Source of the DNA: Bdellovibrionia bacterium
GTDB taxonomy: Bacteria > Bdellovibrionota > UBA1018
Direction of reading: 5' to 3'
Assembly: GCA_049424145.1 (NCBI GenBank)
Contig: JBMSSC010000050.1
Coordinates: forward strand, 1-17,735
Length of the DNA stretch: 17,735 nt
Below the pieces are notes generated by a model. That model saw only the letters and a list, made by a program, of their open reading frames with translations, was not told the DNA's origin and ran no database searches. Shown here piece after piece: positions 1 through 8,287 of the stretch; positions within the stretch are counted from its first letter, which is position 1; each line of letters begins with the position of its first letter. Both the position numbers and the translations under genes were made by a program.

Positions 1-421
1 GCCCTGAGAGCGGATCGATCTTACTGAAATCAGGAGTCAGTGGATCAAACGAGAACACTGCTCCCACTTGAGCAAAACTTGCTAGAATGCCTAACAAAAA
101 CCCCGCCCCGCAGATCGGAAACCCCATCAGCAGGATCATCTTCAGGGCCTTCATCAGATACTGACCCATCACTTGGGTGTTACCCAGATCGACGCGTGAG
201 GATAGATCGGTCCTCAACACTTCCTTCATGAATTCTGCGATTTCCTGACCAAACCTGGGAGCCATGGAATACATCATCACCGCAACGGTGAGCAAAACAA
301 GAAGCCCACTGAGCTCCTTGCTCTGGGAGACCATCCCCTTGGAGCGAAACTCCTCCAGTCGATACTGAGAGGCTTCTTCTGTTAAATCTTCTCTGGATTG
401 ACTCTCCCGATCGTCCGCCAT
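1..421 (-). CDS. flhB: Flagellar export switch protein FlhB, 5' part (continues beyond window edge)
   Basis: Manual translation from ATG at 421: MADDRESQSREDLTEEASQYRLEEFRSKGMVSQSKELSG...FAQVGAVFSFDPLTPDFSKIDPLSG. This matches the FlhB N-terminal TE..(T/S)..R...R.KG.V..SKEL and Q.G..F....L.P.FSKI.P..G motifs, and it starts 3 nt after the fliR stop. Confidence 0.95.
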   Translation of the reverse strand, partial: MADDRESQSREDLTEEASQYRLEEFRSKGMVSQSKELSGLLVLLTVAVMMYSMAPRFGQEIAEFMKEVLRTDLSSRVDLGNTQVMGQYLMKALKMILLMGFPICGAGFLLGILASFAQVGAVFSFDPLTPDFSKIDPLSG

Positions 422-5681: not shown

Positions 5682-6965
5682 CTAACCGCGCTTCAAGTTT
5701 AAGACATCCTGAAGCATCTCATCGGAGGTACTAATCACCTTCGTATTGGCTTGGAAGTTCCGTTGAGCCTGAATTAAGTTAATGAATTCGTTAGCAATAT
5801 CTGTTGTGGAGGCTTCAATCGTTTTAGCCGTCAAACGTCCACGACCACCGGCCTGAGGGGAGCCAATGGAACCTTCACCAGAAAGCCTACTGGCTCGGAA
5901 GCGGTTTTGACCGACCTTATTTAACGCCTCAGGGTTTTCAAACTTAGCCAAAGCGATTTTTCCCATGACTAAGCTCTGACCATTGGTGAAATTAGCAATC
6001 ATGGTCCCATCATCATTAAAGCTCAAACCCATCAAGCTTCCACCCGTGGATCCGTTCTGAACATTTTTATACGTCTCAGAAGCTGTTCCATACTGAGTGA
6101 CTTCCAGGCCATTGCCACCGGATTTCTTATCGGCTCCAAAATTGAATTTCACCACCTGATTGGGAAGCGCTCCTTTGGTAAAACTAAAGGAGGACTTATC
6201 GGTCACCTGCTCTTTTAATCGCCCATCCGTATCAAAAACCAATTTCCCCTTGGCGCACTCCACCATCTTGCCCTTTGCTCCTCCCACGATTTCATCGCCT
6301 TTGGCCATGGCTCTCCAGGTCCAAACTCCATCTTCCGTTCGATTAAAGTAGAGGTTCACAGAATGAGCAATACCCGCAGAATCATAGACTGTCACACCGG
6401 TTCCAAAGTGCGAAGTCAAATCAGGTTGTTCAGGATCAAAGTTTTCCTTAATCTCGCTTCTTAAATCCAGGTTAGCAAATAGCTTCACTTCATTGGTGGG
6501 CTTCGCAGGGATCACGGATCGAGTGATCTCCATCTCCCCGAGTTTTGAGGTAATTTTGCCATCATCGTCGGCTTGATACCCCAAAACATGGAAGTTATCG
6601 GAGTTAATTAACTTTCCCTCCTTGTCAAAGTGCATGGATCCATTTCGTGTGTAGGTTTGACCATCAATTCCTTGGAGAACAAAAAACCCATCTCCGGTAA
6701 TCGAGATGTCAGTGGGTGATTCCGTCTGAAGAATGGAGCCTTGAGAGAAGATTGGATTAACAGCACCGAGGCGAACTCCACGACCGACTTGGTTGCCGCC
6801 TTGATACCCCTTAAGTGATTGAGAGATCACGTCCTGAAACTCAGGTCGACTCACTTTAAAGCCAATCGTCCCAGCGTTTGCAATGTTATCACTAAATACG
6901 GATAACGCCTCACCTTGAGCCGATAGACCTGAAGTTCCTGTCAACATTGAAGAAAGAATACCCAT
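5682..6965 (-). CDS. flgE: Flagellar hook protein FlgE
   Basis: 427 aa; SGL...SDNIANAGTIGFK, FSQGSI..T..PTDISITGDGFF, YTRNG, VYDSAG (FlaE/D2 domain), IEASTTDIANEFINLIQAQRNFQAN; RBS AAGGAGG at 6974-6980. Confidence 0.97.
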   Translation of the reverse strand: MGILSSMLTGTSGLSAQGEALSVFSDNIANAGTIGFKVSRPEFQDVISQSLKGYQGGNQVGRGVRLGAVNPIFSQGSILQTESPTDISITGDGFFVLQGIDGQTYTRNGSMHFDKEGKLINSDNFHVLGYQADDDGKITSKLGEMEITRSVIPAKPTNEVKLFANLDLRSEIKENFDPEQPDLTSHFGTGVTVYDSAGIAHSVNLYFNRTEDGVWTWRAMAKGDEIVGGAKGKMVECAKGKLVFDTDGRLKEQVTDKSSFSFTKGALPNQVVKFNFGADKKSGGNGLEVTQYGTASETYKNVQNGSTGGSLMGLSFNDDGTMIANFTNGQSLVMGKIALAKFENPEALNKVGQNRFRASRLSGEGSIGSPQAGGRGRLTAKTIEASTTDIANEFINLIQAQRNFQANTKVISTSDEMLQDVLNLKRG

Positions 6966-7006
6966 ACGGAAAGCCTCCTTGCATTCATTGCATTAGTTTA
7001 GTTATT

Positions 7007-7059
7007 ACAATCCGTCCATCATTCGGGATTGTTAGGCTTCCCTCAAAGGGTCCAGCCTA
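7007..7059 (-). promoter_or_regulatory. Candidate structured cis-regulatory RNA in the flgE leader (two abutting hairpins)
   Basis: RNA: UAGGCU-GGA-CCCU-UUG-AGGG-A-AGCCUA (7059-7033) immediately followed by ACAAUCC-CGAAUGAUGGAC-GGAUUGU (7032-7007). Confidence 0.55.
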
Positions 7060-7076
7060 TGATTTCCACTGACTTC

Positions 7077-7469
7077 CTAAATCACTACTGCTCCATCAAT
7101 ATTCGTAAATACATTCCCACTCACTGCATTTCGATCCACAGCCGTAACAACCGTTCTATTTTTCACACTAATAATTAACGCAGCATCCTTGGTGAGGACC
7201 AAGGTATCTTCCACTCCCTTTGCCTCGGCGCGATCCACAGCATCATTAATCTTACTCATCGTTGCAGGATCAATATCAATCCTACGATCTTTGATGCGCT
7301 GGAACGCATGGGCTGAGAATTTCAACGGGGGTTTAATCTGATTTAAAACCTCATCAAACTCACTGGGGACCCCTTCTTGTTTCTTGGGTCCTGTTTGATC
7401 CAGGTTTCGAACCCCCGATTGCCCCGGAAGCGAAGTAATGCTCGGGTACAGTATCGGTGAGCGACTCAA
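7077..7469 (-). CDS. Uncharacterised flagellar operon protein (TIGR02530-type), TTG start
   Basis: Lies between flgD and flgE; LKFSAHAFQRIKDRRI, AVDRAEAKG..DTLVL, ALIISVKNRTVVTA, NVFTNIDGAVVI signature; RBS AAGGAGG; TTGA overlap with the flgD stop. Confidence 0.9.
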   Translation of the reverse strand: MSRSPILYPSITSLPGQSGVRNLDQTGPKKQEGVPSEFDEVLNQIKPPLKFSAHAFQRIKDRRIDIDPATMSKINDAVDRAEAKGVEDTLVLTKDAALIISVKNRTVVTAVDRNAVSGNVFTNIDGAVVI

Positions 7470-8287
7470 GTTCCCTCCTTTCCTGCTCCAGCCAGAGCTT
7501 CTGATTGGGGAAGCCCCCCAACTGGAGCTGAATTGATCTGAGGCAGTTTCTGAGCTTTCAGATCACTGCCCCCTAAATCCATTTCAATCTTAGCCAAGTT
7601 CTTCAGCGTGACTTTCTCCTGGTGCTCCGCCGTTCCCACTAAGAACACGGGCTCACTTCCCTCAAAACTCACACCAATCACTCGGGCCTGCACACGAGGA
7701 TTGACCTCAATGGAGGCATCCCGATCGTTTTTAGCCGTAATTCGCATCAAATAGTTGCCCGTCTTTGCAGGAAGGGAGTTGGACTTAATGCCGTCCCATG
7801 AAAAGGTCACTGGACCGGCCTTCGTTTCTCCGAGATCCTTCTTATAGACTTCCTCTCCGGTCTCACTTAAAAGCACTGCCTCAAGCGTCTTTGCATCCTG
7901 GGTGAGATGAAAACTGAGCAAGTCATTTTGACCTTCCACATGAGGGAATCGCTCACGATCCACCGTGACGACCTTTCCGATGAGGTTCGTCATGGCTAAT
8001 TGCTCCAGAGGTCGATTCTGAGAGGCGATTTTGCCTAAATTTTGATTTGCGTTTTGCAGTTGTTCAACGGAGGTGAATTGAGCAATCTGCGTGCCCATCT
8101 GTTCGGACTTAAATGGATTGAGCGGATCTTGGTTTTTCATCTGAGTGACCATGATCTTTAAAAAATCATCCTTATCGAGGGTTTTTTTGACCTCTCGAGG
8201 TCGCTCCGCTTTGGCTCCATACTGAGCTTGGAAGCGCGTGAGGCTATCTCCAAACTGAACCGAGGAGGGTGAATTGATCTCACTCAT
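7466..8287 (-). CDS. flgD: Flagellar hook capping protein FlgD
   Basis: LDKDDFLKIMVTQMKNQDPLNP, QIAQFTSVEQL, LIGKVV, FSWDG...G.Y (FlgD Ig-like domain). Confidence 0.97.
   Translation of the reverse strand: MSEINSPSSVQFGDSLTRFQAQYGAKAERPREVKKTLDKDDFLKIMVTQMKNQDPLNPFKSEQMGTQIAQFTSVEQLQNANQNLGKIASQNRPLEQLAMTNLIGKVVTVDRERFPHVEGQNDLLSFHLTQDAKTLEAVLLSETGEEVYKKDLGETKAGPVTFSWDGIKSNSLPAKTGNYLMRITAKNDRDASIEVNPRVQARVIGVSFEGSEPVFLVGTAEHQEKVTLKNLAKIEMDLGGSDLKAQKLPQINSAPVGGLPQSEALAGAGKEGT

Follow-up and report, generated by a model that had tools for sequence, protein, structure and literature searches.

In ribosomal-protein leaders, an RNA structure carried by an operon is read by a protein encoded in the same operon, and translation is controlled. 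Among flagellar genes, flagellin is controlled by the CsrA-FliW pair, and FlgM serves as an export checkpoint. The excess of hook subunit made from one long operon, and the stop of its synthesis at completion, have been little studied outside enterics. Two candidate flagellar cis-RNAs ending near the ribosome-binding site, Termite-flg (RF01729) and flg-Rhizobiales (RF01736), are described in the passages found of Weinberg et al. 2010 (PMC2864571). The RNA element reported here has a different fold from both, and is not catalogued: Rfam 15 gave no match for the window, for 20 orthologous loci, or for 14 loci at E values up to 5. Termite-flg was rejected as its identity, since, in 5 genomes, RF01729 fails to match the TIGR02530-flgE spacer even with the E cutoff raised to 10.

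The window, that is the whole stretch of 17,735 nucleotides of Bdellovibrionota DNA which was analysed, contains a flagellar operon encoded by the minus strand, whose proteins have their named relatives in Bdellovibrionota. A 111-nt spacer (6966-7076) separates in it the TIGR02530 gene from flgE. The first-pass annotation had seen in this spacer two hairpins, P1 and P2, followed by an AAGGAGG site, and these were read again exactly as drawn (Table 1). Neither a sigma-70 promoter nor a terminator is found within the 111 nt. Also in agreement with the annotation, an intrinsic terminator was rejected, as the spacer is devoid of any terminator-like site (GC-rich hairpin plus U tract). The gene flhB is split across two contigs of the assembly (window 1-385 and contig C175).

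Table 1. Features of the TIGR02530-flgE spacer and of flanking genes in the window.
Feature	Position	Strand	Description
P1 core	7033..7059	-	lower stem; 3x1 internal loop GGH/R; upper stem closed by CC/GG; apical loop variable
P1 internal loop	GGA 7051-7053, A 7039	-	3x1
P2	7007..7032	-	freely covarying stem; 12-nt loop 7014-7025, consensus NGAHYGAYNGAN
flgE ribosome-binding site AAGGAGG	6974-6980	-	inside small ANGGA hairpin, CsrA type, 6969..6984
Ribosome-binding-site hairpin 3' tail	6969-6977	-	complementary to P1 3' strand; resulting fold excludes P1
TIGR02530/PF12611 gene, 130 aa	7077..7469	-	proposed RNA reader
flgE, hook subunit	5682..6965	-	putative regulated gene
flgD, hook cap	7466..8287	-	context only

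Taken as a single sequence, the spacer is a weak case for a structured RNA. Its folding energy has a z-score of -1.28, 23 of 200 shuffled sequences fold equally well, and the minimum-energy fold lacks P1. The 53-nt element by itself scores better (z -3.16; 2/500 shuffles as good). It is the comparative evidence which settles the reality of the element. The starting set comprised 111 loci, 30 from the phylum, one from a gut contig, and the best 80 of 596 GTDB loci; eight were dropped by hand because of a bad parse or a missing motif, and removal of long arms and duplicates left 89. Pairs were counted in an alignment of 69 orthologous spacers, a selection of rows mostly with a recognisable P2: 85.0% of cells pair, and double changes occur at 15/15 pairs. 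None of 500 shuffled controls reaches any of these measures, and registers slid along the alignment give 35-49%. RNAalifold, run on a MAFFT alignment, recovers 8 pairs, corresponding to the outer P1 stem and P2.

In a wider set, 195 of the 205 TIGR02530 loci (184 unique) parse as P1, with a parser loose enough to accept at least one locus (L131) that the search model rejects. The pair closing the 3x1 loop is canonical in 162 of the 184 unique copies, and swaps among these to G-C (10) and A-U (5), whereas at the H-R juxtaposition, A-A in most copies, no covariation is seen. The loop is therefore GGH/R, and the register of the first-pass annotation, which had placed a GGA/A loop in P1, is the right one. 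The P2 loop consensus is canonical in 129/184 unique copies. This loop, NGAHYGAYNGAN, has three GA steps spaced by four bases, which probably form tandem sheared G-A pairs. P1 is the near-universal core, and P2 is common yet dispensable. The direct abutment of the two hairpins, proposed at first as a feature of the element, is found here and is common, but is not a requirement, and P2 is replaced or missing in several families. In family f17 (L113-L120), its place is taken by another hairpin with a different conserved loop, CUGUAGU. The P1 apical loop is free, and tolerates insertions of about 100 nt. Those of L231 and L232 are AT-rich and contain short repeats; the internal loop and P2 are intact in both.

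P1, usually accompanied by P2, was found between the TIGR02530 stop codon and the flgE site in Bdellovibrionota, Bacillota, Bacteroidota and Armatimonadota. The same position is occupied in Geobacteraceae, Actinomycetota, Fibrobacterota, Omnitrophota and others, making about ten phyla in all; the first-pass annotation was right in that similar text follows TIGR02530-type genes in other phyla. By its covarying structure and its fixed place before related genes, the element is a strong candidate for a cis-regulatory structured RNA.

The association with TIGR02530 was monitored in several groups. The RNA search model, called R1, has one match in the genome hosting the window; a loose P1 descriptor has 57 in the same genome, P1 alone being not specific. 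Of 151 Bdellovibrionota genomes, 114 carry the TIGR02530 gene, and R1 matches only 44. Twenty regions from this phylum, either missed by R1 or odd, were inspected by eye: 18 show P1 and have an altered P2 or none; the remaining two, without P1, are a decayed gene and an orphan gene copy. Among 150 Bacilli, 112 of which have FlgD, the RNA is located at the end of the gene in all the 72 genomes with TIGR02530 (68 by standard search, four with filters off), and in 0/40 of the loci positive for FlgD and negative for TIGR02530, with E up to 1 and filters off. Three stray matches were located at other positions (E 0.03-0.044). In 149 Clostridia scored, the figures are 52/52 positive loci (50 by standard search, two with a long loop insertion) and 0/5 negative ones; an extra second flgD locus has neither gene nor RNA. 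Four weaker matches away from the gene were noted in Clostridia, and one is clearly a real copy. It is a second full copy of the RNA (L233:1449-1514, minus strand), with no TIGR02530 beside, and precedes a short ORF broken up by an element of IS200/IS605 type. In 150 Bacteroidota genomes, 20 of 24 matches are in the order TIGR02530-RNA-flgE, and the other four are weak. A FlgE tree was built with 74 positive and 46 negative loci. Gene and RNA, scored on it as one character, change state 16 times by parsimony, and at least 11 of these changes are forced by well-supported branches. Covariation, spacers from several phyla and co-occurrence all uphold a cis element which is conserved and goes with TIGR02530 and flgE.

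G017, a genome from the family of the window, has TIGR02530 in place, but decayed (L131/L244): the histidine and the NVFTNID motif are altered, the spacer is reduced to 34 nt, and the RNA is lost. G058 (L118/L154) has an additional TIGR02530 gene, an orphan with no flagellar genes around it, which lacks the N-terminal tail, the F motif and the RNA. Both cases, RNA loss beside a decayed gene still in place and an orphan gene without RNA, were counted in favour of the TIGR02530-RNA link. Of the two TIGR02530-flgE loci of the Selenomonas genome G154 (L098, L137), the second, L098, has an intact gene and no RNA. In L300 the RNA directly follows flgD, and TIGR02530 is not found between them. A single deletion could remove gene and RNA together, since they adjoin, and the flgD-flgE junction is short in most TIGR02530-negative loci. 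In L138-L147 flgD has moved beside a uvrB-like gene, and fliK-TIGR02530-RNA-flgE remain in the main operon. Neither the gene nor the motif was detected in plasmids and viral contigs, the sole 'phage' match being an unverified gut contig which carries flgD-TIGR02530-RNA-flgE. The phage G protein which a preprint relates to TIGR02530 was not recovered by tblastn; the part of this preprint available only names the family. TIGR02530 is missing from 14/14 well-known control genomes, E. coli and B. subtilis included, which may explain why the element was overlooked.

In the TIGR02530 protein of the window, a low-complexity tail is followed by an invariant F38-x-x-x-L42 and by a domain of the RelE/colicin type (BECR). 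The predicted structure (pLDDT 88.6, pTM 0.66) starts with a flexible tail, and a short helix at 37-44 leads to an alpha/beta domain. In a fold search, ranks 1-18 are all RelE/ParE/HigB/YafQ/YoeB-type chains or Cami1 (Z 6.4-4.6, rmsd 2.5-3.8, 60-75 aligned), Z values which, being below 8, could denote a common arrangement. Foldseek gave no match with E < 0.001, no sequence relative of TIGR02530 was found in the PDB, and a search of the Atlas by features retrieved nothing outside the TIGR02530 family. DUF4258 is matched by 49/120 family members at E up to 0.1. The family profile, compared to a DUF4258 toxin found beside an MqsA antitoxin (L248:599-1447), aligned with a probability of 93% (E 2.5e-7) over the S-x-H-A-x-x-R-x-x-x-R-x-I and ITA motifs. 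Residues S52, H54, R58, R62, K84 and T109 are near-invariant (the last five conserved in 96-100% of members) and are located in the first helix and the last strand; the net charge of the core is mildly basic (median +2). Three methods agree in predicting for TIGR02530 a BECR fold related to DUF4258 toxins. A type II toxin-antitoxin module was nonetheless rejected, because the neighbours of TIGR02530 are flgD or fliK, and flgE, and no antitoxin gene adjoins. DUF4258 is presented as an undescribed BECR family in the passages found of PMC11980606, and is grouped with colicin-like nucleases, which keep a catalytic histidine in the first helix, in those of bioRxiv 10.64898/2026.08.28.747851. Flagellar members are not mentioned in the passages found of the two surveys.

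The first-pass annotation had interpreted the spacer as a processing or binding site which sets the large excess of FlgE over FlgD and FliK. A site of binding or processing is still the best reading, with TIGR02530 as candidate partner, and may contribute to that excess. A clue to the mode of action comes from the flgE ribosome-binding site. In the window, the best fold of the naked RNA lacks P1, whose 3' strand is paired instead with the tail of the ribosome-binding-site hairpin. This occluding fold is preferred to the P1 fold by 5.8 kcal/mol (-33.5 vs -27.7), a figure in which non-canonical loop pairs earn no credit. In Bacillota, the flgE site reads GGAGG-UY in 43 of 66 loci having that core vs 2/126 neighbouring genes, which favour GGAGGUG (55), and in 3/23 TIGR02530-negative flgE sites; the GGAGG-UY ending is complementary to the P1 5' strand and follows it, as RGGUY is found in 44/59 loci where P1 reads GGACCY vs 4/18 otherwise, kin not being independent in these counts. 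The predicted occupancy of the anti-SD helix averages 0.24 in Bacillota, 0.08 in Bdellovibrionota and 0.07 elsewhere. No compensatory fit of the helix was found in Bdellovibrio and Geobacter, and the switch is not universal. According to the CsrA binding consensus, a CsrA-type hairpin covers the flgE site in 31/59 Bdellovibrionota vs 4/46 controls, and csrA is present in the genome of the window; P1 and P2 themselves do not qualify as CsrA operators. In Bdellovibrionota this hairpin may add a second input.

These data can be accommodated in a model, to which we assign a little less than an even chance, in which the RNA serves as an operator for TIGR02530, a putative domesticated RNA-binding protein of toxin fold encoded just upstream, and binding switches on FlgE translation. 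P1, and usually P2, fold in the mRNA, as shown by covariation. By sequence, P1 and a helix over the flgE site exclude each other; this helix is made by the P1 3' strand in the window and by the P1 5' strand in Bacillota, where GGACCY pairs to RGGUY, and the two folds would act as a switch. TIGR02530 would recognise the GGH/R loop, found only in the P1 fold, and the P2 loop could provide a second contact. Bound P1 would free the site, and raise translation of FlgE and, in some genomes, of FlgG or flagellin. Co-occurrence, the toxin-fold protein, copies in trans and the competing helix all speak for this model. Were TIGR02530 the reader, activation would be somewhat the likelier sign, and repression a serious second. 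Against the operator model count the adjacency of gene and RNA, loci L098 and L300, fold Z values below 8, a protein core which is only mildly basic, and an anti-SD helix which is not universal. RNA-seq contigs of a relative cover the locus. In the part available of PMC8219983, read depth increases downstream of a stem-loop in R. cellulolyticum operon 1018 (139/214, 440/649, 580/786), which is not tied to the element.

The conserved residues of TIGR02530 sit where colicin-like BECR enzymes keep the catalytic histidine and basic residues, and the protein might be a site-specific endoribonuclease, the element being its cut site. A cut in the P2 loop or in the GGH bulge would split the transcript, remove the inhibitory P1 strands, and change the stability or translation of the flgE message. 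The coincidence of histidine and RNA loss in G017 fits with cleavage, and so does a weak fold match to the processing RNase RegB of T4 (rank 44, Z 3.3). On the other hand, several families keep the histidine yet lack P2, no antitoxin gene adjoins, and a shared fold does not prove activity, as ParE-type members are not RNases according to the passages found of PMC11980606. Cleavage is on balance an unlikely explanation, to be kept in mind.

Copies of the element found elsewhere bear on the identity of the reader. A motif-first scan of metagenomes gave at least 120 matches. Among the 120 listed, 101 have the order TIGR02530-RNA-flgE, and 2 have the gene and are cut off on the downstream side. 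Eight are next to a rod or hook gene, with no TIGR02530 seen upstream: the flgF-flgG spacer is the site of five, flgD directly precedes one, another hook-type gene precedes a second, and the last is a cut-off locus. The remaining 9 have neither; one precedes flagellin (L378), one is cut off, two have unrelated ORFs downstream and are well formed, and the other five resemble chance matches. Of the well-formed copies, L291 is followed by a small unrelated ORF and L379 by an unidentified stretch. Since copies precede flgG and flagellin, the element would act on the downstream gene and be read in trans; judged by such placements, it is the mark of a small regulon of hook, rod and flagellin genes.

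The same copies before axial-subunit genes, having no TIGR02530 beside, would also suit a different reader, be it unexported FlgE or FlgG, a housekeeping RNase or RNA-binding protein, or a metabolite, with TIGR02530 merely sharing the cassette. L098 and L300, in which the local link is broken, and the ease of joint deletion of adjacent gene and RNA are in line with this. The RNA, however, survives in 0/46 TIGR02530-negative loci, all of which have FlgE, and is lost in G017 where the gene decays in place; in many positive loci it lies 20-100 nt from the end of the gene. A metabolite is further disfavoured by the few invariant bases left to build a pocket, as we infer. Another reader appears rather improbable, slightly more so than cleavage.

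Pure translational coupling, in which ribosomes reaching the TIGR02530 stop codon melt P1 and expose the flgE site, is suggested by the many Bacillota P1 which start 2-8 nt past the stop or include it. The distance from stop to P1 ranges however from -22 to 108 nt, the TIGR02530 frame extends into or through P1 in one clade (L149-L153), and both the sequence-conserved loops and the link to one protein family are left unexplained, which makes coupling highly implausible. In type III toxin-antitoxin pairs an RNA restrains the toxin, and a similar decoy role is evoked by the obligate pairing of a structured RNA with an adjacent gene for a toxin-fold protein which has no protein antitoxin, but can hardly be credited to an element which is single-copy, downstream, always just before the ribosome-binding site of a flagellar gene, also found before flgG and flagellin, and absent from viral contigs and plasmids.

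Returning to TIGR02530 as the reader of the operator, its N-terminal motif suggests how the protein might sense assembly. F-x-x-x-hydrophobe is found in 120/120 members, with F at 32-41 in the central 80%, and in a fixed window in 165/183 locus proteins vs 17 in a control window. The position of F38 resembles that of F42 in FlgD, F43 in FlgE and F46 in FlgB of the window. F-x-x-x is a consensus of flagellar export signals, and the motif, alternatively a packing helix, may be recognised by the export gate. In Salmonella, FlgD docks on FlhB via residues 36-40, according to the part available of PMC8983047. It is conceivable, though doubtful, that TIGR02530 is a domesticated toxin-fold RNase or RNA-binding protein and an early export substrate which sets hook and rod synthesis through the RNA. 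Its cytoplasmic level would then report the state of the export apparatus. If true, this would be a FlgM-like secretion checkpoint acting on mRNA in about ten phyla, and missing in the 14 control genomes.

Literature searches on TIGR02530, the flagellar operon protein and flgE RNA motifs, mostly among papers outside subscription, gave no description of the element. It is not mentioned in one supplement of PMC8632094, nor in the main text of PMC11109978. HMP2_4503 (77 nt), located near flgE in Roseburia, is included in a file of PMC8040213 without flgD and Flagellar_put, and may overlap the element. The flagellar operator RNA is real, broadly conserved and apparently undescribed, and TIGR02530 is a strong candidate as its partner. 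What has been added to the first-pass annotation is the helix over the ribosome-binding site, the flgG and flagellin copies, and the nature of the TIGR02530 protein. Together, they offer a testable RNA-protein pair for hook control in Bacillota, Bdellovibrionota, Geobacter relatives, Bacteroidota and others, and a likely molecular role for TIGR02530, a common uncharacterised flagellar gene. If the model is true, a nuclease fold of toxin-antitoxin systems has turned into an operon-specific regulator.

Several known systems share traits with the element. The core letters of P1 resemble those of SRP RNA helix 8 (RF00169), an identity rejected since the register slid by +2 pairs in 43.9% vs 85.0% of cells and no fixed tetraloop is present; R1 matches 0/3 SRP loci. 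No small SRP RNA was found by RF00169 in the assembly of the window or in three genomes of the family (G000, G041, G122), where it may be divergent or unassembled. Termite-flg and flg-Rhizobiales, restricted to narrow taxa, are made in contrast of a long hairpin capped by GCGCGAA and of GGGAGAG hairpins, respectively, as reported in the passages found of PMC2864571. TIGR02530 has fold and motifs in common with DUF4258 (PF14076), RelE-ParE and colicin-like BECR nucleases and T4 RegB, and differs from DUF4258 toxins for the lack of an antitoxin, the fixed flagellar place, the N-terminal tail and a conserved C-terminal extension. Control of an abundant flagellar subunit at the post-transcriptional level, or linked to export, recalls CsrA-FliW and FlgM. 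Differently from CsrA-FliW, the putative targets are hook and rod genes, and the conserved GGH, which can also be GGU or GGC, is placed in an internal loop, as a CsrA site is not; as for the comparison with FlgM, a link of TIGR02530 to export is suggested by a motif only. Ribosomal-protein leaders are similar in being small internal-loop RNAs within an operon which act on translation and are read by a protein of that operon, as is proposed here. No Rfam leader matches the element, which is set apart by an operator placed after the gene of its putative regulator, by a regulator with a toxin fold, and by a predicted activating sign.
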